From: Chitinophaga pinensis | GTDB taxonomy: Bacteria; Bacteroidota; Bacteroidia; 2-12-FULL-35-15 | DNA: 64,000 nucleotides | Assembly: GCA_945879015.1 (NCBI GenBank) | Contig: CAMCUO010000009.1 | Span: 6,444 to 70,443, forward strand | Direction: 5' to 3' | Part shown: positions 6,520 to 46,300 of the stretch, in pieces | How the letters are laid out: each line of letters opens with the position of its first letter | Position numbering within the stretch: position 1 is the first letter of the stretch | Position numbers and translations under genes: made by a program | Notes under the pieces: generated by a model | The model's database searches: none | What the model saw: only the letters and a program-made list of their open reading frames with translations | What the model was told of the DNA's origin: nothing

Positions 6520-7650
6520 ATGAATATAAAATACAGCAAAAAAAATTACCTTAATTTAACTACTCATACGGCTTTAGGAATGAGTCTGCCCGTTTGGATC
6601 AGGCTGTTGATCAAAAACAAACTTGCGATCGATATTCGCTTTTTACCCAAAGTGCTATTTTTGACAGGCAACATTCTTATAAATATTCCCTTTCAATTAT
6701 ATGAATCCCTCCGTTATAACAGAAAAATTAAAAACACCATTGTAAAAAGTCCGATTTTTATTTTGGGTCATCCGAGAAGCGGAACAACTTATTTACATTA
6801 TGTATTAAGTAAAGATCCCGATTTTTCATTCTGCTCGACCAACGAGGCACTTATCCCGAATACATTTTTAAGCATTGGAAAATTCACGACTAAGATTCTT
6901 GAGATGGCGATGCCCGAAACAAGACCGCAGGACAATGTAAAAGCAGGTGCCGCAAAGCCAAAGGAAGAAGAATTTGCAATGGGAAACATCAGCAGTACCT
7001 CCGTGGTGCACGGCTATTATTTTCCAAAAAGTATTAATAAAGTGTTTGATGAAACAGTAACTTTTGAAAAAGGGGATCCAGACATCCTTTCTCATTGGAA
7101 AGCCAGATTATCCTATTTTGTAAAAAAATTAAGCTATAAACATACTGGCAAAAGAATTTTACTCAAGAGTCCGGCAAACACAGGAAGAGTTAAAGAAATA
7201 CTTGAATTGTATCCGGACGCATGTTTCATTCATATCCACCGCGACCCATTTGAAGTGTATCAATCGAATGAAAAGCTATATGAAAAAATACTTCCTTTAC
7301 TTAGCTTTCAAAAAGTAGAAAATAAATTTATAGAAGACTACATCCTTTATTCTTATGAAAAGATGTACCGAAAATATTTAAAGGAGAGATCAATAATTCC
7401 GGAAAAACAATTGTTTGAAGTCTCTTATTCGGACTTTGTTTCTGCACCCATTGAATGCACCGAAAAAATTTATGCGCATCTGAATTTAGGTGATTTCGAA
7501 AAAGCCCGGCCGTTTTTAAATGAGGAAGTTCAGTCTGTCAAAAATTATCAAAACAATTTATACTCCGGAATGTCTGAAAAAACAAAGAGCCAAATAAAAG
7601 AAAAATGGGCTTTTTTCTTTGACGCCTTCGGATATGACAAAAACAACTAA
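6520..7650 (+). CDS. PAPS-dependent sulfotransferase family protein
   Basis: 5'-phosphosulfate-binding loop GHPRSGTTYLH and a 3'-phosphate-binding element HIHRDPFEVYQS. I prefer the ATG at 6520 (MNIKYSKK); the track start at 6487 is TTG. Confidence 0.8.
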   Translation: MNIKYSKKNYLNLTTHTALGMSLPVWIRLLIKNKLAIDIRFLPKVLFLTGNILINIPFQLYESLRYNRKIKNTIVKSPIFILGHPRSGTTYLHYVLSKDPDFSFCSTNEALIPNTFLSIGKFTTKILEMAMPETRPQDNVKAGAAKPKEEEFAMGNISSTSVVHGYYFPKSINKVFDETVTFEKGDPDILSHWKARLSYFVKKLSYKHTGKRILLKSPANTGRVKEILELYPDACFIHIHRDPFEVYQSNEKLYEKILPLLSFQKVENKFIEDYILYSYEKMYRKYLKERSIIPEKQLFEVSYSDFVSAPIECTEKIYAHLNLGDFEKARPFLNEEVQSVKNYQNNLYSGMSEKTKSQIKEKWAFFFDAFGYDKNN

Positions 7651-7659
7651 AGAATAAGT

Positions 7660-9096
7660 CTAAACTCTTTTTATTTTACCGCTGCCCGTCAACTCAATCT
7701 CATCAACAATCGTAATAAATTGCGGCAACTTGAAAGCGGACAATTTTTTTCTGCAATACATAATCAGTGCTTCCTTGTCAATCTCCTGATTTTTTTCAAC
7801 TTCAATTTCAACAGCAACAACTTCACCCATCAAGGGATGGACCTTAGCAAATGCTTTCGAGTTTTTTACCCCTTTATATGTATTGATCAGCTCCTCGATC
7901 TCATTTGGGAAAACTTTATTTCCCGAAACGTTGATCACATTCTTTTCCCTGCCTTTAATGATTATTAAGCCATCTTTTTTGCGCACAGCATAATCACCCG
8001 TCATGAACCAGCCGTTTATTAATACGTCATTTTTTAAGGTTGGCGGACTCAAATATCCACCAAACATTCCCGGACCCTTTATACCTAAAAGTCCGATCTC
8101 ACCATCAGGCAGGGGATTCATATCGGCATCCAAAATTACAACATCGTAAGCAGGAAGAGCATAGCCGACTGCTTCCGGAAACTCTTTAGAATGTTTCAGA
8201 TTAAGTATCGGTAAACCAATTTCTATAATACCGTATGCCTGACTAACAGGAATTGAATATTTTTTTTCGAAGGAATTACAAATTTCTGCGCTTATAGCAG
8301 TTGTTGTGGAAACAACTTTTGATAAACCGGGAAGCTCAATCGTTTGTGGATAGGACGCTAAAAGCTTAATGTGCATAGGCGAAGCATATAAAAATGTTCC
8401 TTTTTTATCCAGCACACTTTCGATAATACTTTCGGCAAGAAAATTAGTATTAATAATAATTCCAACTCCATACTTTATATATAAAACAATGGAAACAACA
8501 AAATGATATGCCATTGGAAGCACCCAAACAACTCTGTCGTTCTCAGAAAGCTGAAGTTGCTCATTGGCCGCAACAACCCTTTCCAATGCGGAAGTATGTG
8601 AGATCAGGACACCCTTGGCTTTACCCGTAGTGCCCGAGGTAAAACGAATAAAAGCGATATCTTCCACAAAATCAACAACAGGATCTTTTTCAGATCTTTT
8701 TGTTTGACTGATAAAAAGCGGGCTATCAAAAAGCGAAATTCGATTGCAGTTTTCTCCAATAGAAGCATGCTGTTCAGAATCAGAAATAATCAGATGAATT
8801 TTCACCTCCTCTAGTGCGTTGATAATTTCACTTGCTTTTTGCTGATGAGATATTGGCATTGCAACGGCATTACAGCCAACACTTGCATATAAAGAAATAA
8901 TAAAATAACGACTGTTATTAGTGATGATTCCAACACCAATTCCAGAACTTACACCCTTGCTAATCAAATAATCTTTTAGCAGTTCTGTTTGTTCAAATAA
9001 TTCAGAATATGTTAGTGCACCGTATTCATCAAAAATAGCCGTTTGATCGGGCCAGTTTTTTGCTGCATTAATTAATGTGTTATATATATTATTCAT
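7660..9096 (-). CDS. Adenylate-forming acyl-AMP/acyl-ACP (or CoA) ligase
   Basis: ANL-superfamily cores are present: FTSGTTGKAKGV, YGIIE, TGDYAVRKKDGLIIIKGREKNVINVSGNKVFPNEIE, SGKIKR. The ATG at 9096 overlaps the stop of the upstream FAD oxidoreductase gene. Confidence 0.85.
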   Translation of the reverse strand: MNNIYNTLINAAKNWPDQTAIFDEYGALTYSELFEQTELLKDYLISKGVSSGIGVGIITNNSRYFIISLYASVGCNAVAMPISHQQKASEIINALEEVKIHLIISDSEQHASIGENCNRISLFDSPLFISQTKRSEKDPVVDFVEDIAFIRFTSGTTGKAKGVLISHTSALERVVAANEQLQLSENDRVVWVLPMAYHFVVSIVLYIKYGVGIIINTNFLAESIIESVLDKKGTFLYASPMHIKLLASYPQTIELPGLSKVVSTTTAISAEICNSFEKKYSIPVSQAYGIIEIGLPILNLKHSKEFPEAVGYALPAYDVVILDADMNPLPDGEIGLLGIKGPGMFGGYLSPPTLKNDVLINGWFMTGDYAVRKKDGLIIIKGREKNVINVSGNKVFPNEIEELINTYKGVKNSKAFAKVHPLMGEVVAVEIEVEKNQEIDKEALIMYCRKKLSAFKLPQFITIVDEIELTGSGKIKRV

Positions 9097-10342
9097 TGCC
9101 AAATAATAATTCTTTATTTAATAAAGCTATCATTTCTTTCTGCTCTTCTAATGTTTCACAAGTCGCTATTTTACCTGCCGCGTAACCCGTTTGCAAACAA
9201 GTTCCAATCACTCTTGCGCTTGCAATTGCTTTTGTGGTAGCCGAAATATTTTTCCCTGCAAAAAACAAATTATCAAATGCATATGAGATCAGACAATCTG
9301 CAGGAATCATATATGCATCATCAGGTCCAAAATATTCCATCGACACATTTCCATCACTTTGCCATTCTTCGATCGGCCAGGTTCCAACAGCAATTCCCGT
9401 ATCCATTTTTTTACACGAAAGCACATCTGATTCAGTAAGTATGTATTTTCCCTTTGAACGTTTTAATGTACGAATTCCCAATTTAGGAAAAATTGTTTCG
9501 ATCAATGCGTATTTTAAACTTTCGACTTCTTCTGTTAAAAATGGAAATACTGTTTCAATACTTGTTCTTCCTTTTAAATATAGTTCATTGTTAGTTTCAT
9601 CAAGATCGGTGATCGCATCCGGAAATGTAATTTTAAAATCCGCTTGTTTGTTTTTTAATGAGCCGGGAACAACACTCAAAAATGTAAAACTTTGTGGCCA
9701 GCTATTTTTCTTCACCAACATTGACATCGCTTTTTTTAAAGACATATTCAACGAAAACTCTGAATCAGACAAAACGCCTTTCACTCTGAAAATTTGTGAT
9801 GCGGATTGATAACTTGGACTAGCAATCATTTCTAATCCTGCCAGTTGAGAAACAACTCCGTTTCCGCTGCAATCAATTACGGCCTTAGGAAGTATTTCAA
9901 CGCTTTCTTTTCCACTTGCTACAATCAGCCTGTTAATTGAATTCATTTTTTTATCCACGCGGATTATTTCGGAAAACTTCATGATGTGGATGCCATTAGC
10001 AAGAAGTTCTATTTCTAAAAAGGACTGCAAAACGGACCATTCATAAGAAAGAATAAACAACCCTTTGTGATAGTTTTTTGGAGTTTTTTCAATTGATATA
10101 GAAATCAGTTTATTCAAAAAAGCTGTTGAAAAAGAGTAGCCTGCAATTCGAGGATATTCGGAAAATGTGCGGTAATAAGCACCGCAAATTGTACCAACAT
10201 TACTTTGTGTGGCGTTGCCTCCGAGTGAATCGCTTTTTTCTATAATAAGTACTTTTTTCTTTTCTTTTGCAGCCGCAATTGCCGCGGAACATCCTGCAAT
10301 TCCGGCACCAACAATTACAACATCTACCTCGAAGGAAATCAT
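9089..10342 (-). CDS. FAD-dependent oxidoreductase
   Basis: N-terminal dinucleotide-binding fold VVIVGAGIAGCSAAIAAAKEKKKVLIIEK..LGGN. 417 aa. It shares an ATGA overlap with the upstream acyltransferase gene. Confidence 0.75.
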   Translation of the reverse strand: MISFEVDVVIVGAGIAGCSAAIAAAKEKKKVLIIEKSDSLGGNATQSNVGTICGAYYRTFSEYPRIAGYSFSTAFLNKLISISIEKTPKNYHKGLFILSYEWSVLQSFLEIELLANGIHIMKFSEIIRVDKKMNSINRLIVASGKESVEILPKAVIDCSGNGVVSQLAGLEMIASPSYQSASQIFRVKGVLSDSEFSLNMSLKKAMSMLVKKNSWPQSFTFLSVVPGSLKNKQADFKITFPDAITDLDETNNELYLKGRTSIETVFPFLTEEVESLKYALIETIFPKLGIRTLKRSKGKYILTESDVLSCKKMDTGIAVGTWPIEEWQSDGNVSMEYFGPDDAYMIPADCLISYAFDNLFFAGKNISATTKAIASARVIGTCLQTGYAAGKIATCETLEEQKEMIALLNKELLFGNE

Positions 10343-11634
10343 TCTATAAATTTTTTACCATTAATTAATTCGAATTTCAATTGCTTTTCTAATTGAACCA
10401 TTTCTACTTCAGAAAGAACTTCCTTGTAATACAAAACCATTATTTGTAATCGTCCTTTAAACCTCATAAATGCAATTGTTAGTCCGGGAGGATAAATATT
10501 CGGTGGAAAACTCAAGGCATCAGTCACGTTCAATCCATCAAATTTTAAAAGTTCTTCGGGATGATCTTCCGCAATCGTAAATAAAAATCCGGAAAGCGAA
10601 CCTCCTTGTGGACCCTTTATTAACTGGTAATACAAGCTAGATGGAATTCTTCTTAAAAAATGCATCAACACATCGTATGCGCGTGGAATCCCTTTTCGAA
10701 TCTGATCTACCATTTGATCATTGATTGTTTTTACGGCATGCTCCAGTGATTCCAACACCTCAGAATTTAGTCTGTAAAATAAAAAGGACAGGTGATTTCC
10801 CAAAAGAGGACCAACAGCCCCTTTTTTGCGTTTATTCTGCGGTACAGGAATCCAAAAATTACTGACTGTTGATTTACGCTGGATCAATATTTCTTTTACG
10901 GCTCTGGCGCTGCAAGCCAAATAAAAAGGGCTTCGTCCGAATTTCGCTCCAAGTTTAGGAGCATTCAAATCGATTTCCATTGTCTCTTCTTTCGTAAAAC
11001 GGATCACTTTTATTTTTTGATCCACTTCTGGATGTCTCGTTTCAGGACTGAGACCGGAAGTTGGTTTTTTGGAAGATGCAGACAAAAAAAACGTCGCTTT
11101 CACGGCTTCTTTTAATGTAGAGACATTAAATTTAATTTTAGTATTATCTGAAATGTATCCGCTGCTGCTCTCCGATCCATTTAGTTGTTTAAGAAACAAT
11201 ACTGCTCCATAACTATCCATGATCAGGTGATTCCAGGAAAATATAAGCGCAGTTTTCCTGTCAGATCTTCTAATAATATCAAAAGAAAAAAGCGGAGAAT
11301 TTACAGCCGAAATTTTTTTGTTGATCAACAGATCCGGAAGAAATGAATCGTTTTCATGTGCGGTTACCTCGATTTTCTTCCACTGATTCGATTCCCATTT
11401 TGGGAGTGCAAATAATCCATTTTTATTGATTGAAAGAGAAGCAAGATATTGTGATGCTTTGTTATTTGTTATTTTGTTTTTAAAATCAGCAACATTTAAT
11501 TCGCCATCAAGTTCCAGCAGATAACGGCACGTATTTCCGGATAAACCTTTATGATGATCATGTTTTTCTAAGGCCAAAATAAAACAATCTGCAGCCGTTA
11601 AGGGAACACTGTTTATTTGATTAGAATTATCCAT
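10339..11634 (-). CDS. HxxxD acyltransferase of the condensation / WS-DGAT / PapA-like superfamily
   Basis: The N-terminus VPLTAADCFILALEKHDHHKGL resembles the WS/DGAT start (PLSxxDxxFLxxE...). The candidate catalytic motif is NHLIMDSYGAVLF (HxxxD). 431 aa. Confidence 0.6.
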   Translation of the reverse strand: MDNSNQINSVPLTAADCFILALEKHDHHKGLSGNTCRYLLELDGELNVADFKNKITNNKASQYLASLSINKNGLFALPKWESNQWKKIEVTAHENDSFLPDLLINKKISAVNSPLFSFDIIRRSDRKTALIFSWNHLIMDSYGAVLFLKQLNGSESSSGYISDNTKIKFNVSTLKEAVKATFFLSASSKKPTSGLSPETRHPEVDQKIKVIRFTKEETMEIDLNAPKLGAKFGRSPFYLACSARAVKEILIQRKSTVSNFWIPVPQNKRKKGAVGPLLGNHLSFLFYRLNSEVLESLEHAVKTINDQMVDQIRKGIPRAYDVLMHFLRRIPSSLYYQLIKGPQGGSLSGFLFTIAEDHPEELLKFDGLNVTDALSFPPNIYPPGLTIAFMRFKGRLQIMVLYYKEVLSEVEMVQLEKQLKFELINGKKFIE

Positions 11635-11637
11635 AAA

Positions 11638-11889
11638 TTAAAGATACCTAAAAGTACATTCGGCCAATGTTTGAATGGATTTTAAATTCTCGGGAGTCAG
11701 GTCTTTCTCAGAAATGGCAACTTCAAATTTCCGTTCGATAAACAAAACCAATTCAATGATCGACATGGAATCTATTCCAATATCGCTGAAGAGAGTATCA
11801 GGAGTAATACTTAAGGAGCTATCTAAAATAGCAGACTGAACAAATAAAAGAAGTTCATTGCAAATATGTTCTTTGCTAATCTTTTCCAT
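11638..11889 (-). CDS. Stand-alone acyl carrier protein
   Basis: 83 aa, with the phosphopantetheine attachment motif GIDSMSIIEL. Confidence 0.85.
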   Translation of the reverse strand: MEKISKEHICNELLLFVQSAILDSSLSITPDTLFSDIGIDSMSIIELVLFIERKFEVAISEKDLTPENLKSIQTLAECTFRYL

Positions 11890-11897
11890 TATAAAAA

Positions 11898-13175
11898 TTA
11901 ATTAATGCGCGTTTTAAGTTTATACAAACGATAAGAGATCACGATGGAAAACACAAAGAAAAGTCCGAGTTTTAAAACCTGGTATTGGATTGCATACCAG
12001 TCGCCACCCTTAATAAATAACTCGTAATAACCCGTGAGTGCCCAGTTAAGCGGAGACAAGGAGCTGATGGTTTGCATAACAGGAGGCATAATATTTACGG
12101 GCACCCAGATACCTCCGAGCGCAGACATGATCAGAATACTAATGCCGCCAAAGACAGCAGATTGCTGTGGTGTGTTGAATAATGTTCCGATCAATAAGCC
12201 ATAACTAACTGCAGCCAAAGATAGCATCATTGTGAGTGCGGTCAATGCGAGCCAGTGCGTTCCAATATCTAAGACAGATAGGCCCAACAGTGGCATCACA
12301 TATTTCCCGAGTAAGATGATCACTACAAATTGAACAATTGCAACTAAAAAATAAACAAAAAGTTTACCTGATAATATTGATAGATAATTACCTGGAAATG
12401 TTCTCAACCTGATAAACATTCCTTCCGAGCGTTCATAAATGATACTGCCGCCCAAAGGCAGAACGATAAAAAATATTGAAAAAATAGCCCAGGCAGGAAT
12501 GTTATGCTGAACAGCACTAGGCTGATATGTTTTTTTAAGATCTCTGACAGCATATGCTTCCTCATAAACAAAAAAATCAGACTCAGGCAGCACCGCTTTT
12601 GAATCTGATTCTAATAGTTGTGCAATTTTTTCACCCATTATCTGAAACAATATCTTTGTTTTTATGGAAGAGATCAACTCTTTTAATCCACTATTTATAC
12701 CCATTACAAACGATTTGTTTGCTGTAGGATCGATGATGATCTCTACTTTTACCTGCTGCGGCTCTTTTATTACTGTGCTTTTCTGATCAAAAAAAACATT
12801 CACCATTTCGGCCACATTTTCCCGCAGTACATTTGTCGAATTTTTCGGTATCACTAATGCTGCAAGAAATTCGCCCTCAACAATTCTCTTTTTGATATCA
12901 TCGGATGATCTGTATTTTGTCCCGTCATCAACTGTTAAATCACAAATTCCGAATTTCTTAAACCCGTTTTCGATTGCTAAGCCAAGACTGTCATTATCAT
13001 TGTTAACGAGCAATACAGGGATTCCGGACTGAGAAAGACTTTTATATGCCTCGTGTTGAATGAGCGTCATAATGAATACTAGCAAAACGGGCATCACAAA
13101 AAGAACTGTGATACCGGTTTTGTCAACGATCAACAATTTGACTTCTTTAATTAAGGTTGAAATTAATCGATGCAT
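11898..13175 (-). CDS. ABC-2 type transporter permease
   Basis: 425 aa. The topology is one N-terminal TM, a large extracytoplasmic loop, then a cluster of about 5 C-terminal TMs, as is typical of ABC-2 exporters. It lies 1 nt downstream of the ATPase gene. Confidence 0.8.
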   Translation of the reverse strand: MHRLISTLIKEVKLLIVDKTGITVLFVMPVLLVFIMTLIQHEAYKSLSQSGIPVLLVNNDNDSLGLAIENGFKKFGICDLTVDDGTKYRSSDDIKKRIVEGEFLAALVIPKNSTNVLRENVAEMVNVFFDQKSTVIKEPQQVKVEIIIDPTANKSFVMGINSGLKELISSIKTKILFQIMGEKIAQLLESDSKAVLPESDFFVYEEAYAVRDLKKTYQPSAVQHNIPAWAIFSIFFIVLPLGGSIIYERSEGMFIRLRTFPGNYLSILSGKLFVYFLVAIVQFVVIILLGKYVMPLLGLSVLDIGTHWLALTALTMMLSLAAVSYGLLIGTLFNTPQQSAVFGGISILIMSALGGIWVPVNIMPPVMQTISSLSPLNWALTGYYELFIKGGDWYAIQYQVLKLGLFFVFSIVISYRLYKLKTRIN

Positions 13176-13176
13176 A

Positions 13177-13929
13177 TTAGTCCCTTATTTTTCTTCCAGT
13201 AAATTTTAAAAATACATCTTCCAAATCAGTTCCATTCTCTTGTCGTATCAACTCTAGAGGGCTTCCCAAACAAAGTATTTTCCCTTGATCCATAATTGCA
13301 ACTCTGTCGCAAAACAATTCAGCTTGTTCAAGATAGTGGGACGTATAGAGAATCGTCATTTTTTTATTAACATTAAGTTCCTTTAAATGTTCCATCATAG
13401 ACGTTCGTGTCTGTACATCCATTCCCACTATTGGTTCATCCAACAATAAAATGCTAGGCTCATGTAATATTCCACCGATCAGATTTATTCTACGCTTCAT
13501 TCCACCAGAATAATTTTTGACAGGCTTATCACTATTTTTATCAAATCCGAATTTGGACAAACATTCCTGCACTCTTTCTTTCAAGACTTTCCCTTTCAAG
13601 CCATACATTCGTCCAATAAAAAGCAGATTGTCCCTTCCGGATAAGGTTGGATAAAGTGCGATGTCTTGGGGAACCACACCAATTATTTTTTTAATAGATT
13701 CCAGATTTTTACTGATCGAGTATCCTGCAATTTCGGCATTTCCGCTACTTGCTTGGAGTAAACCACAAATGATTGAAAAGAAAGTCGTTTTTCCCGCTCC
13801 GTTTGGCCCCAACAATCCAAATATTTCTCCATTAAAAATATCCAGATTCATTTCCTTGAGAGCAAACGAATCATTCCCAGGATATTTTTTGGACAAATTT
13901 GAAATCCGTATGCAGCAATCCCCCTTCAT
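13177..13929 (-). CDS. ABC transporter ATP-binding protein
   Basis: Walker A GPNGAGKTT, signature SGGMKRR, Walker B LLLDEP. Confidence 0.92.
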   Translation of the reverse strand: MKGDCCIRISNLSKKYPGNDSFALKEMNLDIFNGEIFGLLGPNGAGKTTFFSIICGLLQASSGNAEIAGYSISKNLESIKKIIGVVPQDIALYPTLSGRDNLLFIGRMYGLKGKVLKERVQECLSKFGFDKNSDKPVKNYSGGMKRRINLIGGILHEPSILLLDEPIVGMDVQTRTSMMEHLKELNVNKKMTILYTSHYLEQAELFCDRVAIMDQGKILCLGSPLELIRQENGTDLEDVFLKFTGRKIRD

Positions 13930-14266
13930 TTATTTAATTTTTTAAGAAAAACAAAATTAGTCGTTTTAAAATAAAACAGGCTATTTTTTACGGATTTAAA
14001 TAAACGCAAATGTGCCACTTCAACAATAAAAAAAAGAAGGTCATCGTACTGCGAATCCAAAACTGGATGAACAAACTCGCTTGTCTGTTTTGGTGGCCTT
14101 TCAGACGCAAAAAAAGGCATTTTAGGACAAACGGATAATCGATACAGAAAATTGATTCTTAGCAAAGAACCGACTCTATTGCAGCAGCAACAGCCCTTAC
14201 AAAAGATTTTTCAATAAAATTATTAAAATTCCGTATCATTGTAATTCAAAATCGTTTATTGGTAAA

Positions 14267-15754
14267 ATGAAGAAATCGTGTGCGGTAGTTGGTTCGGGAA
14301 TTGCAGGATTGGCTGCTGCAATTCGGATTGCAGCAAAAGGGTATGCCGTTGATGTTTATGAGACCAATGATTATGCAGGAGGCAAAATGAGGGAACTGCG
14401 AAAAGACGGATATCGTTTTGATATGGGTCCGTCTGTTTTTATGTTGCCCGAACTTATTGACGAATTATTTGAACTTTGCCACAAAAACCCGCGCGATTAT
14501 TACACCTACAACCCGCTGGATATTTCGTTTAAATATTTTTTTGAGGACGGCTGTGTTATAAATGCTTATGCCGATGTAGAAAAATTCGGAGAAGAAATAG
14601 CACTTAAAACAATTGATACCAAGAAAACATTTGACAACTATCGGAAGGACATAGAAACGAAATTCAAGATAACGAATGGGGTATTTATTGAAAATTCGTT
14701 ACATGTATTCCTTAACTTCATTAATTGGAGAACAATTTACGGTCTGTTCAATTTTCACAAGATCGATGCATTTAAGTCGATGAATAAAGGAAACAAATCC
14801 TTTTTTAAGGATCCCCGTTTGGTTCAATTACTCAATAATTTCGCAACGTATGTCGGATCAAACCCTTTTGTTGCACCTGCCACACTAAACGTTATCCAAC
14901 ATTTAGAAATTAATTTAGGAACTTATATCCCTGAAAAGGGCATGTATTCTATTGTTTCTGCGCTTGTAAAATTAGCAGAAGACATGTCCGTAAAATTTCA
15001 CTACAACACTACTGTTGAAGAAATTATTACAGCATCAGCAGACAATGGAGGGAAAAAGAAAAAAGTGATCGGAATAAAAACAAAAAAAGCTGACCTTATT
15101 TCTTACAATCGTGTGATTAGCAACATGGATATCTACTACACATTTAACAAATTATTGCCTAAAGAACCTGCGCCTAAAAGAATTCTGGAACAACCAAAAT
15201 CAAGTTCGGTAATTGGATTTTTCTGGGGTGTAGATAAAAAACATGAAACTTTGGGAATACACAATATGCTTTTTTCGAATGATGATGAAGCAGAATACAA
15301 AGCGATATTCAATAACAATATAGTAAGTGATGACCCTTCTATATATATTTCCATCTCATCCAAACAGATAAGGGAAGATGCTCCAAAAGATTGCGAGAAT
15401 TGGTTTCTGTTTGTAACGGCCCCAAATGATCAAGGTCAGAATTGGGATGAATTAGTGATTCGGACACGTAAAAATGTTTTTGAAAAAGTGAACAGGATGC
15501 TTAGAACAGATATCGAAAAACACATTCAGTTCGAGGAGTTGTTGACGCCACCAATGATCAAGGAAAACTATTCAAGTCCCTTTGGTGCTGTATACGGAAA
15601 TAGCTCAGATGATAAATTTGCATCCTTTTTCCGTCATTCTAATTTTTCTAAAAACATAAGCGGTTTATATTTTGTAGGAGGAAGTGTTCATCCCGGAGCG
15701 GGAATTCCGATGTGTTTGAATTCTGCAAAAATAATGGGCAAGGTTTTTTCTTAA
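14267..15754 (+). CDS. Phytoene-desaturase-family carotenoid desaturase (CrtI/CrtD-like)
   Basis: 495 aa. N-terminal FAD fold AVVGSGIAGLAAAIRIAAKGYAVDVYETNDYAGGK, and a C-terminal GLYFVGGSVHPGAGIPM motif typical of CrtI/CrtD enzymes. Confidence 0.8.
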   Translation: MKKSCAVVGSGIAGLAAAIRIAAKGYAVDVYETNDYAGGKMRELRKDGYRFDMGPSVFMLPELIDELFELCHKNPRDYYTYNPLDISFKYFFEDGCVINAYADVEKFGEEIALKTIDTKKTFDNYRKDIETKFKITNGVFIENSLHVFLNFINWRTIYGLFNFHKIDAFKSMNKGNKSFFKDPRLVQLLNNFATYVGSNPFVAPATLNVIQHLEINLGTYIPEKGMYSIVSALVKLAEDMSVKFHYNTTVEEIITASADNGGKKKKVIGIKTKKADLISYNRVISNMDIYYTFNKLLPKEPAPKRILEQPKSSSVIGFFWGVDKKHETLGIHNMLFSNDDEAEYKAIFNNNIVSDDPSIYISISSKQIREDAPKDCENWFLFVTAPNDQGQNWDELVIRTRKNVFEKVNRMLRTDIEKHIQFEELLTPPMIKENYSSPFGAVYGNSSDDKFASFFRHSNFSKNISGLYFVGGSVHPGAGIPMCLNSAKIMGKVFS

Positions 15755-15778
15755 AGATAAATTTGAAAAAAGATACGT

Positions 15779-16270
15779 CTACTCTCCTCTAATCTTCTTC
15801 TTTTTTTTTGCAATCAAATAATATTTAAAAGGAACCAAAAGCATCCCATAACAAACGTCATCCTCTTTTTTATAATCCGGCTTTCCATCATTTTGATGAT
15901 GCGCAAGGTGTCCGTATTTTAGTGCCAACAAATGAGGGCTCTTGGTTTTTGCCAATAAATTTATTCTCTTATGAATCAAACCATCGTGTATAAGAGCATA
16001 ACATACTCCATAAAGTGTAATTCCAATCCCCACATACATCTTGTAATCACAACCATGCCGAATGCCAAACATTATTAACATCCAACTGGGAATCACGAAT
16101 ATTAATGCGAAAAAATCGTTTTTTTCGAATTTATTTTTGTGGGGGATGTGATGATCTCTATGTAATTTCCAGAGAAAGCCGTGCATAATAAAACGGTGCA
16201 TCGTCCAAGCAACAGCTTCCATCAGGATAAATGAAACAATTATTATAAGGGCATTCCAGAGATAAATCAT
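15779..16270 (-). CDS. crtZ: Beta-carotene hydroxylase (fatty-acid-hydroxylase superfamily)
   Basis: 163 aa with four histidine boxes in the CrtZ arrangement: HRFIMH, HRDHH, HDGLIH, HLAHH. Confidence 0.8.
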   Translation of the reverse strand: MIYLWNALIIIVSFILMEAVAWTMHRFIMHGFLWKLHRDHHIPHKNKFEKNDFFALIFVIPSWMLIMFGIRHGCDYKMYVGIGITLYGVCYALIHDGLIHKRINLLAKTKSPHLLALKYGHLAHHQNDGKPDYKKEDDVCYGMLLVPFKYYLIAKKKKKIRGE

Positions 16271-16499
16271 TATTCAAAAATTTGTTCAATAAGCACTATT
16301 ATTCCTATTCAATTATTCCATTTAATATAAAACCGAAAAATCCAGGTTTATATTCCAAATCCATATAAATTTTATCAAAACTCGGTTTACTTATATACTT
16401 TTTCAGTAAGCAAAGATAAATAAAAATTACCCTTTTGAAGGATTTTTAACCTTTATTAATACTCGTATATTTTCTATAGTGAATCTTGATTGTCTGTGG

Positions 16500-16938
16500 T
16501 TAATTGAACCTCCAGTAGCGGAGTTGGAATAGTTGCAAGTGCAGGAGTTGTTTGGAATATGAATTGGTAATAGTTAGTGATTTTTGGAGTGTTGCACAGC
16601 CTTGTGTTGGTTGCAATGGCGTAGCTGTTTGGGATGGCGTTTCATGGACACCACTCGTAAATGGCGTTAACAATGATGTACTTTCGATAACAGTATGGAA
16701 CAATGAAGTAGTAATTGCGGGAGATTTCACTCAAGCCAATGGTGTTCCAATTGCAAGAATCGCGAAATGGAATGGCACCGTTTGGGAATCTGTTGGACCA
16801 ATTGGAAGTTTTACTAATGATACCCGTGCCATGGTAGAATGCGATGGTGAACTTTGGGTGGGTGGCGATTTTAATAATGTTGGAGGAAATTCAGCATTGC
16901 ATGGTGATTTTTTTATTGTAAAACGAGGGGGGAAATAG
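16500..16938 (+). pseudogene. Stranded fragment of a beta-propeller-repeat (secreted/T9SS-type) protein
   Basis: The 128-aa ORF shows only repeated blades: VAVWDGVSWTPL...VIAGDFTQANG...IAKWNGTVWESVG...LWVGGDFNNVGG. It has no signal peptide and no C-terminal sorting domain. A similar WN..W fragment lies in another frame just upstream (16540-16570). Confidence 0.5.
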
Positions 16939-17359
16939 AAAAATTTTTGGTAATTAAATCAAATAAACAGCTTTTAAACAATCATTGCTGGGTTTTTATT
17001 GGAAAGTTATCTATATTTTGATTAGTGAGGATCCGACTTTAAATGCAAAAACCCTAGGGTTTTAATATTCTCATAATATAAAGCAGCATTAGATATTAAA
17101 GCAAATTCCAATACAGCAATAATGATTTTACATCCTTTTTCTTGTCATTTTTATTTCTGAAATTTTACCAAGACGGATTTTAGTTTGTGCTATAAAAAAG
17201 TATTTCTTTCGGATTTCTTAGGAAAGAAAAATCGAACAACAAACAATTCGAACACACTTTTCTTTCCTCTATGATACGCTAGTAACTATTTGTCGAAATT
17301 ATAATGCCTATATGTCTTTATTATTTAGTAATTTCGTGTGCTAAATATTCAACCCCATT

Positions 17360-19348
17360 ATGGGCAAAGACCATCATCACGTTCACAAACTATCCGCAGC
17401 GGGCTTACTTGTAACATTAGGAATTATTTTTGGAGACATTGGAACTTCTCCTCTATACGTATTGAAAGCTATTGTTGGTGAAGGGCCAATCGATAGCATA
17501 ACAGTGCTTGGTGGCATCTCTTGTATTTTTTGGACACTTACTTTACAAACAACTTTAAAATATGTTATTCTAACTCTTCGTGCTGATAACAAAGGTGAAG
17601 GTGGAATTTTTGCACTTTACACTTTAGTAAAAAAGACCAAAGTAAAATGGCTGATGTTTCCTGCTGTTATTGGAGGAAGCGCAATTCTTGCAGAAGGCAT
17701 TATCACTCCTCCTATTTCCGTTTCCTCTGCAATTGAAGGATTGCGAATGGTGGATTCCTTAAAACACATTCCTACTGTTCCCATTGTAATTGTAATTATT
17801 ATTATTCTTTTTGCAATTCAGCAATTCGGTACTAAATCAATTGGAAAATTATTTGGCCCAATAATGCTTGTTTGGTTTTTGATGTTGGGAATACTTGGAG
17901 TATCACAACTTTCTGATAACTGGTCGGTGTTAAGTGCATTAAATCCAATGTACGGATACGATTTATTAGTAAAACATCCTGGAGGGTTTTGGGTCTTAGG
18001 CGCTGTTTTCCTTTGTACAACTGGAGCGGAGGCTTTGTATTCCGATTTAGGACATTGTGGTAAAGAAAATATTCGCATCAGTTGGATGTTTGTTAAAGTT
18101 ACTTTGGTGCTGAATTACTTCGGTCAAGGTGCTTGGCTTATTGCTCATCAAGGAGAACATTTGAACGGATCTAGTCCTTTCTACACCATAATGCCAACCT
18201 GGTTTTTACCCTTCGGAATTGCATTAGCAACTGTTGCAACAATAGTTGCCAGTCAGGCATTAATAAGTGGATCGTTTACGCTCATAAACGAAGCTATTCG
18301 CTTAAACTTTTGGCCAAAAGCCAAAATCAAATATCCTAGCGACCTCAAAGGTCAGTTATATATTCCATCTGTGAATTGGTTATTGTGTGCTGGTTGTATT
18401 TTGGTTGTTTTGTATTTTGAGGAGTCTACTAAAATGGAGGCGGCATACGGGTTAACAATTATTTTAGGAATGTTAATGTCCTCGCGTTTACTTGCATACT
18501 ATATGCGCATCAAACGTTTCTGGAAACCAATTATTTCAGGATTTATTGTTGTTTATCTTTTTGTTGAGATAGCTTTTTTGGTGGCACAGATGGATAAATT
18601 CTTGAAAGGTGGTTGGATTAGTTTAATGATTGCAGTGTTGCTTACATCCATTATGCTTATCTGGTATTATGCACGCAAAATCAGAAACAGATATGTGGAG
18701 TTTGTAAAACTTGCAGATCATTTACCCATTCTTGAAGACTTAAGTAGAGACTTAAGTGTTCCTAAATATGCAACACATTTAGTTTACTTAACAAGTGCAG
18801 ATAATAGAGAAGAAATTGAATCGAAAATTATTTATTCGATAATGCAGAAGCAGCCGAAACGTGCCGATATCTATTGGTTTGTACACGTTGATGTTGTAGA
18901 TGAGCCCTATCGAATGGAATACAAAGTTTGTGAATTTATTCATGATGATGTAATTCGAATCGATTTCAGATTAGGTTTCCGTGTTGCTCCTCGGGTGAAT
19001 TTAATGTTTAGAAAAGTGGTGGAAGATATGGTTAAGAACAAAGAAGTAGATATTACAAGTAGATACAAATCATTGAATAAAAATAATATCATTGGTGATT
19101 TTAGATTTATTGTAATCGAAAAATTCTTGTCGTACGAAAACGAATTGCCTATTCACGAAAAACTTATTTTGGATGTTTACAGTGTATTGAAACATTTGAG
19201 TTTATCAGAAGAAAAAGCATTTGGATTGGATACCAGCTCCGTAACAGTGGAAACCGTTCCATTGATTATTGCGCCACCAAAGGCTATTAACTTAAAACGG
19301 ATTATAGATTCTGAAGACATTATTCATCCCCCAGAACATAAAGAATAA
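17360..19348 (+). CDS. kup: KUP/HAK/KT family potassium uptake transporter
   Basis: 662 aa. It has the hallmark GIIFGDIGTSPLYV, about 12 TMs and a C-terminal cytoplasmic domain. Confidence 0.92.
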   Translation: MGKDHHHVHKLSAAGLLVTLGIIFGDIGTSPLYVLKAIVGEGPIDSITVLGGISCIFWTLTLQTTLKYVILTLRADNKGEGGIFALYTLVKKTKVKWLMFPAVIGGSAILAEGIITPPISVSSAIEGLRMVDSLKHIPTVPIVIVIIIILFAIQQFGTKSIGKLFGPIMLVWFLMLGILGVSQLSDNWSVLSALNPMYGYDLLVKHPGGFWVLGAVFLCTTGAEALYSDLGHCGKENIRISWMFVKVTLVLNYFGQGAWLIAHQGEHLNGSSPFYTIMPTWFLPFGIALATVATIVASQALISGSFTLINEAIRLNFWPKAKIKYPSDLKGQLYIPSVNWLLCAGCILVVLYFEESTKMEAAYGLTIILGMLMSSRLLAYYMRIKRFWKPIISGFIVVYLFVEIAFLVAQMDKFLKGGWISLMIAVLLTSIMLIWYYARKIRNRYVEFVKLADHLPILEDLSRDLSVPKYATHLVYLTSADNREEIESKIIYSIMQKQPKRADIYWFVHVDVVDEPYRMEYKVCEFIHDDVIRIDFRLGFRVAPRVNLMFRKVVEDMVKNKEVDITSRYKSLNKNNIIGDFRFIVIEKFLSYENELPIHEKLILDVYSVLKHLSLSEEKAFGLDTSSVTVETVPLIIAPPKAINLKRIIDSEDIIHPPEHKE

Positions 19349-19359
19349 TTACTAAAAAA

Positions 19360-19386
19360 GGCTGCCTCAAAAGAGACAGCCTTTTA
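19360..19386. terminator. Bidirectional terminator between kup (+) and the TPR gene (-)
   Basis: Stem GGCTGCCTC / GAGACAGCC (one mismatch), loop AAAA, flanked by A-run and T-run. Confidence 0.65.
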
Positions 19387-19405
19387 ATTTTATTCCATTT
19401 AACTA

Positions 19406-21001
19406 TTAACACTTCAATCCTGCAATTACTTTCTTCGCTTGAGCGTTTGTTGGATCCAACTCTAATACCTTTTGCATATATAATTTAACATTCGGACAAT
19501 CTTTTTTCTCAGCATAATATGCTGCTAAATAATTATACGCACCAATTAAATCGTTTTTATTTTTTTCAGCTTCTTCTGGTTTTACTTTCGTTAAATAGGT
19601 TTCATAGAAAGCTTTTGCTGCCCAATTTTTATTACCTGGATCCAATTGCACATTTGCTTTGGCTCTCCATAAATACCCGTATTGTGATTCTGGTTGAATT
19701 TTAATAATTTGTACTGCAGCAGAATCTGTATTTATAAAATCTTTTGCCGGATAGTATGCTCGAACCAATCCAAGATAATCATTTACTGAAGGCTTCCCTT
19801 TTTCCATTTTCACTTTGTAAGCAGCGATAGCTTCTGGAAATCTTTTCATTTTGATGTAAGCATTTGCGAGGTCTAAATTCAGATCAATTTTTTCAGGTTG
19901 CAACTCTAATGCTTTCTTAAAATCATTAACAGCAGAATTAAATCCAATAGAATCTTTAGCTGTCTTTAAAAGCAACTTTGCACGGTATTCGTAATCCAAA
20001 GGAATTATTTTATCAGCAGGTTGATTTGTAAACAAGTTGTTTATGTTTTCTAATCCTCCAACGTAGTCAGCAGTTTCATATTGGCTATAAGCCATATATC
20101 TATATGTAAATGGATTTACCGGCACACATTTTAAAGCTTCTTTTCCTGCTTCAACAGATTCTTTATAATTCTTAGCTTGATTTAAAATTCCAGAATATTG
20201 ACTTTTTGCACTACAATCATTATTTAATTGTAAGTAACGTTTTGCATTGTATGCAGCATTTCCATATTGTGTAGCACGTAAATAAATCTCAGCTAACTCA
20301 CGGTAAGCAGGCGCAAACATCGAGTCAATTAGTTTCGCTTTTTTGTATGTATCAATAGCCAACTGAAAATTCTTAGCACGATTCCAAACTTGTCCTTGTT
20401 TCAATAATGCTCTAGATGATTTAGGGTCAAGTGCTCCTGCTTTTTCGTAATTCTCCACTGCTTTTGTTCCGTTGTTTTGTTCTAAAAAAGCATCTCCAGT
20501 TAAAATATAAACTTCTGAATTTTTTGGTTCTAGCTTCGTAGCCTTTGCCAATAAAGTAAATGCGTCTGTTAAGTTTTTTGTTGGAGCGGCAATGTATGCT
20601 TCTGCAATTTTCATAAACACTGTTGCATTTTTTTCTGCACCTAAAGTAGTTGCTTTAAAAAAGTTTGCTTTTGCTTCAGCAGTTTGTCCTTTATACCACT
20701 GAACTTTTCCTAGTCCAACATAAGGCAACGGATTTGTTGGGTTTACATCAGCACCTTTTTGATACATAGTGTTTGCCATTTCCATGTTATCATTTTTAAA
20801 ATAGTTTTCACCATAATAAAAATAATAATCACCACTGTTGGGTTGAGTTTGAATCAACAATTTATAAGCAGCGTCTGCTGATTCAAATTGTTCGTTGGTA
20901 GTAAGTTTTAATGCATCATTTAAAGTTTGTGCAAACATGGTTGAAGAGGCAACCAAAAACAATCCTACTATTAATTTCGACTTTTTAATCTGGGCTTTCA
21001 T
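19406..21001 (-). CDS. Secreted tetratricopeptide-repeat protein (last gene of the Ton cluster)
   Basis: Signal peptide MKAQIKKSKLIVGLFLVASSTMFAQ from the ATG at 21001. TPR-like A/Y/L periodicity runs throughout (for example AIDTYKKAKLIDSMFAPAYRELAEIY). Confidence 0.8.
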   Translation of the reverse strand: MKAQIKKSKLIVGLFLVASSTMFAQTLNDALKLTTNEQFESADAAYKLLIQTQPNSGDYYFYYGENYFKNDNMEMANTMYQKGADVNPTNPLPYVGLGKVQWYKGQTAEAKANFFKATTLGAEKNATVFMKIAEAYIAAPTKNLTDAFTLLAKATKLEPKNSEVYILTGDAFLEQNNGTKAVENYEKAGALDPKSSRALLKQGQVWNRAKNFQLAIDTYKKAKLIDSMFAPAYRELAEIYLRATQYGNAAYNAKRYLQLNNDCSAKSQYSGILNQAKNYKESVEAGKEALKCVPVNPFTYRYMAYSQYETADYVGGLENINNLFTNQPADKIIPLDYEYRAKLLLKTAKDSIGFNSAVNDFKKALELQPEKIDLNLDLANAYIKMKRFPEAIAAYKVKMEKGKPSVNDYLGLVRAYYPAKDFINTDSAAVQIIKIQPESQYGYLWRAKANVQLDPGNKNWAAKAFYETYLTKVKPEEAEKNKNDLIGAYNYLAAYYAEKKDCPNVKLYMQKVLELDPTNAQAKKVIAGLKC

Positions 21002-43384: not shown

Positions 43385-46300
43385 TTAATACACAATAATT
43401 TTCTTCACTACATCGTGTTTATCATTTGTCAAGATAATGGTATAAACTCCTTTTCCATAATCAACAACGCTGAATGGTTTGTTATAATTACCAGAGAAGT
43501 TTTTCAATTCTTCCTTATAAATCAACTGACCTAAAGCATTCGTTAATTCTAACGTATAGTTCGCAGGAGTATATACATTAAATGTAATGTTAAAATTACC
43601 ATCACTTGGATTAGGATAGATGTTTAAACCATACTGATTACTTGCATCACTAATTCCAACATTTATAATTACTTCTGGAGCAGATTCTGCGGATGCACAA
43701 CCACTTGTTGTTACAATTACGGTATAGGTTCCATTTGATGTAAATGTATAGTTTTGGTTAGTAGCACCAGCAATCAATACTCCATTTAAATACCACTGAT
43801 TTCCTGTTGCAGAACTTGATGTTAACGTTGTTCCTGATACAGAAATTGTTGGTGTTGGAGGAATTGGATTTACAACCATTGTAATTCCTGTACTAGTTGC
43901 GGTAAGCGGACTAGCACAAGTTGCATTAGATGTTAAGATACACGTTACGATATCTCCATTCGCTAATGTTGTGGTTGTATAAGTAGTTCCACCTGTTCCA
44001 ACGTTAGTTCCATTTACTTGCCATTGATAAGTTGGAGTAGTTCCACCATTTGTTGAAGTTGCTGTAAATAAAACTGATGTTCCTGCACATATTGGTCCTG
44101 CAGGACTTGCAACAACACTCACTGACGGAGTAACAGTAGCATTTACTGTCATTGTGATAGCATTTGAAGTTGCTGTAGCTGTACTTGGACAAGCTGCATT
44201 CGATGTCATAATACAAGTTACAATGTTTCCATTTGCCAATGTTGTGCTTGTATAAGTTGTTCCGCCTGTTCCAACATTCAATCCATTCACTTGCCACTGG
44301 TATGTTGGAGTTGTTCCACCATTCGTTGGTGTTGCAGTAAATGTTACAGATGTTCCTGCGCATATTGCTCCTGTTGGACTAGCAACAATAGTTACCGAAG
44401 GAACTACAACTGGATTTACAGTCATTGTAATTGCATTGGATGTTACAGTAGCTGATGGGCTAGGACATGTTGCATTAGATGTTAAAATACACGTTACAAT
44501 TTGTCCGTTTGTTAAAGTACTAGAAACGTATGTCGGACTATTTGTTCCAACGTTACTTCCGTTAACTTGCCATTGATAAACAGGTGTTGTTCCTCCGTTT
44601 GTAATACTAGCAGTAAATGTAACAGATGTTCCTGCACATATTGCTCCTGCAGGACTAGCAACTATACTAATAGTTGGAGTCACTGTTGGAGTCACTGTCA
44701 TTGAAATGGAATTAGATGTTAACGTAACAGGACTTGGACAAACAGCATTAGAACCCAAAATACAAGTTATAATATCGCCATTGTTTAATAAAGCGGATGA
44801 ATATAATGGACTATTGGTTCCAACGTTAGCGCCATTTATTTGCCATTGATATGTTGGTGCTGCACCACCATTGGTTATTGTAGCAGTAAAGTTAACTACT
44901 GTTCCTGAACAAATTGTTCCTGTTGGACTAGCTACAATACTTATTGTTGGTGTAACCGTTGGATTCACCGTCATCGTAATTGCGTTAGATGTTGCAGTTA
45001 TTGGAGCAGCACATGGAGAACTTGAAGTTAATATACACGTTACAATATCGCCATTTGCTAAAGTTGTTGATGTATAAGTTGTTCCGCCTGTTCCAACGTT
45101 TAATCCATTTAATTGCCATTGATAAGTTGGAGTTGTTCCACCTCCACCAGCAGTTGCAGTGAATGTTACAGACGTACCAGAACAAATCGGTCCAGTAGGA
45201 CTTGCAACAATACTATTTGTTGGAACAACGCTACCACTAACAACAACCGCTACTGTTGAAACTGGACTAGTACAGCCCAACACAGTAACTGTTAAGCTAT
45301 AAGTACCAGCCATACCTGCTGTTGCAGATGGACGAGAAGGATCTTCAAGAGCAGAAGTATAAGCCAAGGGACCTGTCCATGCATATGTTGCACCAGCTAC
45401 AGTATTGGATGTCAATAAAATTGTTGAACCAGTACAAACAGGAGAATTACTTCCAACTGTTGGTGCTGCAGGGATTGGATTCACAACAATAGTAACCGTT
45501 CCAGCTAAACTAGTACAACCACCATTTGTAACTGTTAATGAATATGTCCCGCCCATAACTGTTGTAACACTTGTTAATGCTGGAGGATTTCTCACTGCTG
45601 CTGCATAACTATTTGGGCCAGTCCAGCTATAAGTATACCCACCACCTAAGTTAGGAGTAGTTAAAGTAATTGTACCACCTGCACAAATTGCGGCAGGAGT
45701 TGTACTTCCGTTAATACTTGGAACCGGAGTTGCCGGCAATGCGTTCACAACAACTGTTGTTGTTGCAACTGCACTTGTACATCCACCAACTGTAACTGTT
45801 AAACTATATGTTCCTGCCATCGCAAGTGTTGCAGAAGGACGAGTTGGATCTTCTAAAGAAGAAGAAAAGGCTGCAGGTCCTGTCCATGAATAAGTTGCAC
45901 CTGCTATTGTATTTGATGTCAAACTAATTGTTTGTCCAACACAATCAGGAGTACTACTTCCAACTGTCGGTGTTGCTGGTGTAGTGTTTACAGCAACTAC
46001 TGTTGTAGCAACGGCACTTGTACATCCACCAACTGTTACTGTTAAACTATATGTTCCTGACATGGCTGTTGTTGCAGATGCAATGCTTGGATCTTCCAAT
46101 GCTGAAGTATATGCAAGAGGTCCAGTCCAACTATATGTTGCACCTGCTACTGTGTTTGATGTTAATAATATAGTAGAGCCAACACAAACCGGGGAATTGC
46201 TTCCTGCTGTTGGTGTTGCTGCGGCTGTGTTGACAGCTACTGTTGTTGTCGCTATAGCACTTGTACATCCGCCTACAGTAATTGTTAAGCTATATGTTCC

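Follow-up and report, generated by a model that had tools for sequence, protein, structure and literature searches.

A conserved Bacteroidota gene cluster next to carotenoid genes: a candidate module for pigment tailoring and export

Herein we describe a gene cluster in a 64,000-nt stretch of contig CAMCUO010000009.1 (assembly GCA_945879015.1, Chitinophaga pinensis), hereafter the window, in whose coordinates positions are given unless they belong to a numbered locus (e.g., L126). At its core are six packed minus-strand genes that encode an ATP-binding cassette (ABC) ATPase, an ABC-2 type permease, an acyl carrier protein (ACP), an acyltransferase, a flavin adenine dinucleotide (FAD) enzyme and an adenylate-forming ligase, and upon these converges the gene of a 3′-phosphoadenosine-5′-phosphosulfate (PAPS)-type sulfotransferase (Table 1). 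Every reported open reading frame (ORF) is present at its coordinates in the window ORF list with translations. A base-by-base check gave overlaps of 8 nt between the ligase and FAD enzyme genes (9089-9096) and of 4 nt, ATGA, between the FAD enzyme and transferase genes (10339-10342), gaps of 3 nt (transferase/ACP), 8 nt (ACP/permease) and 1 nt (permease/ATPase), and stop codons 9 nt apart where sulfotransferase and ligase converge, which confirms the layout and all the junctions described in an earlier reading of the sequence (the first-pass annotation). As that annotation had also stated, no ketosynthase and no polyketide synthase (PKS) or nonribosomal peptide synthetase (NRPS) module was detected within 3.7-16.3 kb using Pfam and NCBIfam, and the same models confirmed the families it had named for each gene but the 431-aa transferase. 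Its bounds for the cluster, 6520-13929, enclose real genes but are too narrow, as the conserved unit reaches from the DUF5686 gene (3779) to crtD and crtZ (16270). The G+C content of the cluster (0.34-0.37) is unremarkable against most of the window, and housekeeping genes flank the unit. The spacer between the divergent crtD and ABC genes, presumed to be a shared promoter region, is AT-rich and may contain divergent promoters; it also covers most of a 79-aa ORF with a TTG start (13926-14165, minus strand), which is probably spurious.

Table 1 Features of the conserved unit, in window coordinates, with the evidence for each assignment.
Feature	Position	Strand	Evidence
DUF5686 protein, 833 aa	3779..6280	-	Pfam DUF5686 155.9 bits; CarbopepD_reg_2 56 bits
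PAPS-type sulfotransferase, 376 aa	6520..7650	+	PF13469 (Sulfotransfer_3) 117.7 bits vs cut-off 27
Stand-alone adenylate-forming ligase, 478 aa	7660..9096	-	AMP-binding 181.5 bits; AMP-binding_C 38.9 bits
FAD-dependent oxidoreductase, 417 aa	9089..10342	-	FAD_oxidored PF12831 214.4 bits
Stand-alone acyltransferase with predicted condensation-domain fold, 431 aa	10339..11634	-	Fold and HxxxD motif
ACP, 83 aa	11638..11889	-	PP-binding PF00550 35.4 bits vs 20.8; GIDSM serine
ABC-2 type permease, 425 aa	11898..13175	-	ABC2_membrane_3 110.6 bits
ABC transporter ATPase, DrrA/NodI-like, 250 aa	13177..13929	-	ABC_tran 109 bits
Divergent intergenic region between ABC/cassette operon and crtD, 337 bp	13930..14266		Spacing
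CrtD, 1-hydroxycarotenoid 3,4-desaturase, 495 aa	14267..15754	+	NCBIfam equivalog NF042421 530.1 bits vs 500
CrtZ-like carotenoid beta-ring hydroxylase, 163 aa	15779..16270	-	Histidine boxes

Conservation of the gene set was assessed in 46 loci from species-representative genomes, typed by tblastn with ten window proteins as queries, and the neighbourhoods of three transferase homologues were also inspected individually. Gene counts were taken over the 30 loci with sufficient flanking sequence that belong to the window clade, i.e., the transferase relatives that group with the window copy. The set was found again in dozens of genomes at protein identities of 36-92%, so that the grouping goes far beyond chance and the genes of the first-pass annotation can be treated as a co-conserved unit. 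Its carriers are Cytophagales, Saprospiraceae, Sphingobacteriales-like metagenome-assembled genomes and Flavobacteriales, and the usual order runs from crtZ and the divergent crtD through ATPase, permease, ACP, transferase, FAD enzyme and ligase to the convergent sulfotransferase and, divergent from the latter as on the window, the DUF5686 gene; Reichenbachiella ulvae has the gene order of the window. The crtD/crtZ genes adjoin the unit in 22 of the 30 loci, and the divergent arrangement of crtD and cassette (ACP, transferase, FAD enzyme and ligase) is kept in Cytophagales, Saprospiraceae and other lineages down to 40% identity. A sulfotransferase gene abuts that of the ligase or transferase in 23 loci, and a DUF5686 gene adjoins the sulfotransferase in 20. 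The FAD enzyme and ligase, present in 25 loci, are gained or lost as a pair, and the ABC pair is found in 13, the Chryseolinea and Cyclobacteriaceae loci being among those that lack it.

Genes that stay together despite rearrangement are a classic sign of functional coupling, and the Crocinitomicaceae provide such a case. In one of their loci (L032) the eight non-crt genes are reshuffled and still lie inside about 11 kb, which points to coupling among them. Throughout Crocinitomicaceae/Fluviicola the transferase is joined to the sulfotransferase-DUF5686 pair, and ligase, FAD enzyme and ACP form an inverted block downstream, either a few kb away (L032, L041) or directly after DUF5686 (L047, L049), followed by permease and ATPase where the locus reaches that far (L032). 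Two further types of neighbour were seen around the unit. At locus L126 the ABC genes are preceded by a two-component system of the histidine kinase/LytTR kind, and the cassette ligase faces a convergent 4′-phosphopantetheinyl transferase gene (14009-14626); L003 and L004, too, have a histidine kinase and a LytTR regulator on the upstream side. At L003 (66% identity), about 6 kb (13976-19623) part the ligase from the sulfotransferase, holding a Y1 transposase-like gene, three genes with type IX secretion system (T9SS) C-terminal sorting domains and two small Pfam-less genes, and this stretch resembles an insertion that split the unit.

The 431-aa transferase had been labelled WS/DGAT- or PapA-like, a label that does not fit its structural neighbours. 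Membership in WS/DGAT was rejected because the protein scores 14.8 bits against TIGR02946 (cut-off 309.95) and has no Pfam WS/DGAT domain at E<=0.01, PF06974 being found in just one of 120 homologues; PapA membership was rejected because no PapA structure is among its top 50 Foldseek PDB matches or its PDB profile matches. The window protein also stays below the threshold of the Condensation family PF00668 (16.7 bits, cut-off 30.6), to which some orthologues do have a precomputed match. An AlphaFold model of the transferase from 16 sequences (predicted local distance difference test, pLDDT, 83; predicted template-modelling score, pTM, 0.86) retrieved the stand-alone AzeD (8s6l) as the top Foldseek match (template-modelling score, TM, 0.73), together with the condensation (C) domains of SrfA-C, LgrA and TycC and with heterocyclization (Cy) and epimerization (E) domains of NRPSs, at E-values from 1e-23 to 1e-18, and a profile search against the PDB matched NRPS C domains weakly (E=2e-6). 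The active-site motif of the window protein, NHLIMDSYG, corresponds to a family consensus of WHHLLMDGYG, that is HHxxxDG, whose His136 and Asp140 are invariant in the 16 sequences and retained in distant members too. Judged by its model, the protein is a free-standing C-type enzyme with the two-lobed chloramphenicol-acetyltransferase-like C-domain fold. Nearly all homologues are unnamed Bacteroidota proteins, and a profile search of 1.8 billion representatives placed 303 representative clusters in the family at E<=1e-30.

Among single-domain PDB entries, the 478-aa ligase is matched best by a feruloyl-/fatty-acyl-CoA synthetase (8wev/8weu, 142.6 bits), and aryl-acid ligases also rank high. Its 25 best NCBIfam matches are acyl-CoA synthetase, MenE and adenylation-domain families, with long-chain fatty-acid-CoA ligase families on top; all are below their cut-offs, and on these family and structure matches the earlier label of fatty acyl-AMP ligase is not established for an enzyme that resembles acyl- and aryl-CoA synthetases. 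A high score against LgrA is the sum over two adenylation (A) domains, and activation of an amino acid was rejected on alignment to both, where the Asp that binds the alpha-amino group is replaced by His or Val. The lack of this Asp, together with the likeness to acyl- or aryl-CoA synthetases, suggests that the ligase activates a carboxylic acid, which it would presumably load onto the ACP, whose gene immediately precedes that of the transferase at almost every locus. The first-pass proposal that ACP, adenylating ligase and HxxxD transferase act as a carrier-protein-dependent acyl-transfer system is supported at the level of predicted function. The FAD enzyme gave a good AlphaFold model (pLDDT 91.5) and only distant Foldseek relatives (TM 0.36-0.48), namely the geranylgeranyl-reductase-like Ta0516, group-A flavin monooxygenases and the carrier-protein-dependent halogenases PltA and Bmp2; since all PDB matches remained at TM <0.5, no function was assigned from its fold. 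A protein of some cassettes without a Pfam match, ‘X476’, was considered as a new component and proved to be a divergent FAD enzyme homologue.

In the window clade, as in the crt-embedded clade described below, the two exporter genes keep together and immediately precede the ACP gene. The best models for the ATPase are DrrA (TIGR01188, 242.9 bits) and NodI and those for the permease are ABC-2 families, all of them below equivalog cut-offs. On the other side of the spacer, the window CrtD is 50% identical to that of a complete crt cluster (L123, see below). Its neighbour, the CrtZ-like protein, has no Pfam or NCBIfam match at the thresholds applied; it carries the four histidine boxes of carotene hydroxylases (HRFIMH, HRDHH, HDGLIH and HLAHH), is 41% identical to the CrtZ-like gene product of L123 and has an orthologue at L002 with PF04116 (FA_hydroxylase), and it thus appears to be a divergent subfamily that current models miss. 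In Algoriphagus, crtD is located outside the main crt cluster (PMC10784355), which implies that its recurrence beside the cassette is more than crt-operon membership.

The sulfotransferase gene starts at an ATG (6520), with an upstream TTG (6487) open too, and the first ~75 aa of the protein are hydrophobic. It classifies as Sulfotransfer_3 by family score and by its 5′-phosphosulfate and 3′-phosphate binding motifs (HPRSGTT and RDPFEVYQS, R-x7-S). The nearest solved structures are the mycobacterial Stf9 and Stf1 (2z6v, 2zq5; E about 3e-8), and several orthologues bear the JGI name omega-hydroxy-beta-dihydromenaquinone-9 sulfotransferase. At L052 (11130-13924), an orthologue of 50% identity has CysN, split CysD-like ORFs and an APS kinase as neighbours, which supports the use of PAPS; it also adjoins a GldF/GldG-like ABC-2 system, and both cassette and DUF5686 are missing there, so the sulfotransferase can serve elsewhere. 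The DUF5686 protein has a signal-peptide-like N-terminal segment, a CarboxypepD_reg-like domain and a C-terminus ending in FKFSF, and is probably an outer-membrane protein; we found no solved homologue, and one incidental mention in the literature. At L053 (3472-12074), LpxK, a Porin_10 protein, MiaE and a PAP2 phosphatase surround a lone pair of divergent DUF5686 and sulfotransferase genes, which hints at an outer-membrane or lipid A-related neighbourhood.

To follow the cassette beyond the window clade, we typed the contexts of distant transferase members, added 80 loci from a metagenome scan and built a neighbour-joining tree over 119 transferases, in which three groups could be recognized. 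One group comprises aryl-polyene and radical-SAM contexts. Here, aryl-polyene/flexirubin-type clusters (L058, L059, L066, L068, L093) embed homologues of the ACP-transferase-FAD-ligase cassette among ketosynthases, ApeP/ApeI-like dehydratases, LolA, MMPL, GT2-DUF2062, a polysaccharide deacetylase, a TAL-like aromatic ammonia-lyase and a halogenase, and other cassettes are flanked by B12-radical-SAM genes. In a peat/sediment branch of metagenome loci (L064, L072-L079, L086, L092), one B12-radical-SAM gene precedes ACP and transferase and another separates these from FAD enzyme and ligase, followed at L064, L072, L075 and L077-L079 by a distant CrtI-family (amine-oxidase-type) gene whose product is about 22% identical to L123 CrtI. 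In the second group a flavin halogenase-like gene precedes the cassette and some loci add ketosynthases and ketoreductases. In many of the low-GC loci within the range L094-L134 (e.g., L105, L107, L115), a flavin halogenase/monooxygenase-like gene lies directly upstream of ACP-transferase-FAD-ligase, with ketosynthase and ketoreductase genes downstream of the cassette at L107 and L115; the halogenase-preceded low-GC loci are probably flexirubin-type Bacteroidota clusters. The first-pass statement that the locus lacks flexirubin/aryl-polyene ketosynthase genes stands for the window, but the cassette has clear homologues inside such clusters, which ties the family to membrane polyene pigments. 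Across contexts the ligase is the best conserved part of the cassette, at 40-41% identity (the value between the window ligase and those in aryl-polyene clusters) as against 27-30% for the transferase and FAD enzyme and 27-28% for the transferase by itself, and this conserved ligase beside a diverged transferase fits a shared donor acid and different acceptors.

The third, ABC-linked group consists of the window clade and a sister clade whose transferases are 28-32% identical to that of the window. In the sister clade, L123 reads crtI-crtB-crtD-[ATPase-permease-ACP-transferase-FAD-ligase]-crtYcd-crtZ-cruF, and fragments at L119, L127, L129, L131 and L133 are concordant with this arrangement. 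CrtI and CrtD of this clade score 732 and 630 bits (cut-offs 640 and 500, NCBIfam), and phytoene synthase, lycopene cyclase and CruF-type domains are present (Pfam), so the crt genes of L123 read as a complete pathway to a monocyclic 1′-hydroxy-3′,4′-didehydro xanthophyll. The six-gene unit is co-directional with this complete crt cluster (seen at L123, L133, L129 and L131), which is the strongest evidence for a carotenoid as the substrate of the window unit. The first-pass annotation had guessed at a hydroxy-carotenoid acceptor, and the guess gains strong comparative support from this clade and from the crtD/crtZ adjacency in the window clade.

From gene content, co-conservation, folds and the linkage to carotenoid and aryl-polyene genes we infer the chemical steps, the donor, the acceptor and the destination as follows. 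The ligase would adenylate a carboxylic acid and load it onto the dedicated ACP, and while bound there the acyl group is probably altered by the FAD enzyme. The condensation-fold enzyme would then take this group from its thioester on the ACP and esterify with it a hydroxyl of a monocyclic xanthophyll (saproxanthin or flexixanthin type), an acceptor that the neighbouring CrtZ and CrtD would help to make. In the window clade, the PAPS sulfotransferase would sulfate a remaining hydroxyl, after which the ABC-2 exporter would take the amphiphilic product out of the inner membrane, and its recipient in the outer membrane may be the DUF5686 protein. Besides the carotenoid context, this scheme is favoured by the operon-like packing with overlaps, by the modelled C-domain fold with its intact HxxxD in the transferase, and by the apparent kinship of the sulfotransferase with mycobacterial lipid sulfotransferases and the annotation of its orthologues as acting on an isoprenoid alcohol. 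Gene context supports the carotenoid link well; the reading as a whole, i.e., a carotenoid-linked pigment-tailoring and export module of Bacteroidota, we consider about evenly balanced, and that sulfation takes place on the same molecule as acylation falls short of even.

Several observations weigh against this reading, which rests on predicted functions and gene context. None of crtI, crtB, crtY and cruF is found in the 64 kb of the window, and no crt gene lies inside 10 kb of the unit in 8 of the 30 window-clade loci, among them all Crocinitomicaceae/Fluviicola, where none stands next to the transferase, Reichenbachiella agariperforans (L031) and L126, where the six-gene version occurs alone, without crt, sulfotransferase or DUF5686 genes. 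Five loci (L010-L013 and L130) lack both FAD enzyme and ligase and keep ACP, transferase and sulfotransferase, and sequence and fold identify neither the donor acid nor the role of the FAD enzyme. In the tree the two carotenoid-linked clades form a sister pair, so their linkage may have arisen once. The module might instead make and export a non-carotenoid envelope lipid, for instance an acylated and sulfated lipid or a modified lipid A or lipopolysaccharide, and adjoin crtD/crtZ only through inherited synteny or through joint regulation by light or oxidative stress. Stand-alone versions without crt neighbours (L132 as well as L126 and the Crocinitomicaceae) would suit this, as would the sister relation of the carotenoid-linked clades, the LpxK, porin and PAP2 phosphatase genes beside the sulfotransferase-DUF5686 pair of L053 and the general suitability of an ABC-2 exporter and an outer-membrane protein for envelope-lipid traffic. 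We nevertheless hold it to be unlikely, given the co-directional cassette and ABC genes within a complete crt cluster, the persistence of the divergent crtD arrangement in distant relatives and the ties of the rest of the family to another class of polyene pigment; moreover, Pfam revealed no gene within the unit that would point to another acceptor (sugar, amino acid or glycerolipid).

Other alternatives concern parts of the scheme. ABC pair, ACP, transferase, FAD enzyme and ligase could tailor a pigment while sulfotransferase and DUF5686 form an independent outer-membrane-related pair that is often merely syntenic, in which case the product would be acylated and unsulfated, an outcome compatible with an acyl-carotenoid. 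That pair does stand apart from the cassette in Chryseolinea (L051, L053), 440 kb from it in one genome, which also counts against a single module, as does the absence of both genes from the crt-embedded clade; in addition, the sulfotransferase orthologue beside CysNDC and a GldF/G-like ABC transporter has no cassette, and DUF5686 is found in Tannerella forsythia. Set against this are the frequency with which the sulfotransferase abuts ligase or transferase in the window clade, its position directly against the transferase at L010-L013 once ligase and FAD enzyme have been lost, and the Crocinitomicaceae, in which the transferase has moved beside the sulfotransferase-DUF5686 pair with the rest of the cassette inverted nearby; we regard two separate systems as doubtful, though a sizeable possibility. 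The donor, in turn, may be an aromatic or other specialised acid in place of a fatty acid, which the flavoenzyme would hydroxylate or halogenate on the ACP before the C-type enzyme attaches it, a logic comparable to that of SgcC1/C2/C3/C/C5 in C-1027 biosynthesis. The feruloyl-CoA synthetase match and the high-ranking aryl-acid ligases agree with this, and so do the flavin halogenase/monooxygenase-like genes directly upstream of the ACP in many cassette relatives, the weak resemblance of the FAD model to group-A monooxygenases, PltA and Bmp2, and the presence of the cassette in aryl-polyene clusters producing hydroxyaryl acids. Yet the top NCBIfam matches of the ligase, sub-threshold as they are, belong to long-chain fatty-acid-CoA ligases, Pfam detects no aryl-acid biosynthesis gene within the window unit, and by fold the FAD enzyme is remote from each of the classes (TM <0.5), which leaves an aromatic donor quite unlikely. 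Lastly, the first-pass annotation had compared the locus with the mycobacterial sulfolipid-1 pathway (Stf0, PapA1/2, FadD23, MmpL8), with which it shares the logic of sulfotransferase, HxxxD acyltransferase, adenylating ligase and exporter, and its sulfotransferase has remote relatives in mycobacterial Stf1 and Stf9. This is an analogy and not a homology of loci: no PKS, MmpL or trehalose-related gene was found in the unit (Pfam), the transferase scores as neither PapA nor WS/DGAT, the ligase resembles fatty acyl-CoA synthetases, the exporter is of ABC-2 type and the neighbours are carotenoid genes, so that homology is effectively refuted and its probability negligible.

Among characterised systems, PapA5 with Mas (phthiocerol dimycocerosate), SgcC5 with SgcC1/SgcC2 (C-1027) and VibH are stand-alone condensation-fold enzymes that form esters or amides and are fed by free-standing carrier proteins. 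By analogy, the window system would likewise use a discrete adenylating enzyme, a carrier protein and an HHxxxDG enzyme to transfer an acyl group, bound as a thioester, onto a free nucleophile, and, as in the SgcC system, a flavoenzyme accompanies the cassette. It differs from all three in that the transferase has no sequence-level family membership, PapA5 and WS/DGAT being absent from its top 50 structural matches, in that the flavoenzyme belongs to PF12831, and in its context of Bacteroidota carotenoid and aryl-polyene pigments. With aryl-polyene, flexirubin and xanthomonadin-type clusters it shares true homologues of the ACP-C-FAD-ligase cassette (with the ligase identity noted above), but only this accessory part is common: the window lacks the type II PKS-like ketosynthases and the dehydratases (ApeO/R/C and ApeI/P) as well as the LolA/MMPL export genes of such clusters, and its partners in place of polyene assembly are crtD/crtZ, the ABC-2 exporter, the sulfotransferase and DUF5686. 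A role for the cassette in aryl-polyene/flexirubin clusters was not found in the literature searched. Known carotenoid acyltransferases include CruD (green sulfur bacteria, Salinibacter), CrtO (Staphylococcus) and the plant xanthophyll acyltransferases, which yield acyl esters of hydroxylated carotenoids or of their glycosides and thus match the outcome proposed here; they are, unlike the window transferase, LpxL-like, membrane-bound or GDSL acyltransferases with acyl-lipid or acyl-CoA donors, and we know of none that uses a dedicated ligase, ACP and C-domain enzyme.

The window sulfotransferase shares the PAPS-type Sulfotransfer_3 fold with mycobacterial Stf1, Stf9 and Stf3, the last of which sulfates omega-hydroxy-dihydromenaquinone-9, so a long isoprenoid alcohol has precedent as a substrate; the similarity is, however, distant (E about 1e-8), and there is no P450 partner at the window locus. 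Like the DrrAB and NodIJ exporters of lipophilic products, the ABC pair is encoded beside biosynthetic genes, albeit with scores below the equivalog cut-offs, and compared with the sulfolipid-1 locus (where Pks2 accompanies Stf0, FadD23, PapA1/PapA2 and MmpL8) both exporter type and the transferase and ligase families are different. The literature searched yielded no published characterisation of the cassette or cluster, and no report of a carotenoid sulfotransferase or of an acyltransferase of this type. For the carotenoid sulfates of Erythrobacter, the sulfation genes were stated to be unexplored in 2019 (PMC6627997).

Elsewhere on the window, a 2604-aa protein (43385-51199, minus strand) combines PKD, Ig-like and sortilin-like repeats with a C-terminal sorting domain of the T9SS. 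It sits in a stretch of raised G+C (0.40-0.44 vs about 0.35) and marks the organism as a T9SS-bearing member of the Bacteroidota.

What would be new here is carrier-protein-dependent acyl transfer applied to polyene pigments and combined with sulfation and dedicated export. In its broadest form, which we put forward as speculative and rather improbable, the dissociated NRPS-like cassette of ligase, ACP, flavoenzyme and stand-alone C-type enzyme would be a general device for esterifying membrane polyene pigments, common to aryl-polyene and carotenoid pathways, and joined here to the first carotenoid sulfotransferase and to an ABC-2/DUF5686 route that brings an acylated, sulfated xanthophyll to the outer membrane. 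To our knowledge, there is little understanding of how hydrophobic pigments are brought to the outer membrane. If the proposed pigment-tailoring and export function is true, the cluster would provide the first gene candidates for carotenoid acylation and sulfation in Bacteroidota as well as concrete candidates for pigment delivery to the outer membrane. It would also give a testable role to a family annotated as hypothetical (303 representatives) within carotenoid, aryl-polyene and radical-SAM-rich clusters, for which cultured carriers exist in Reichenbachiella ulvae and R. agariperforans.

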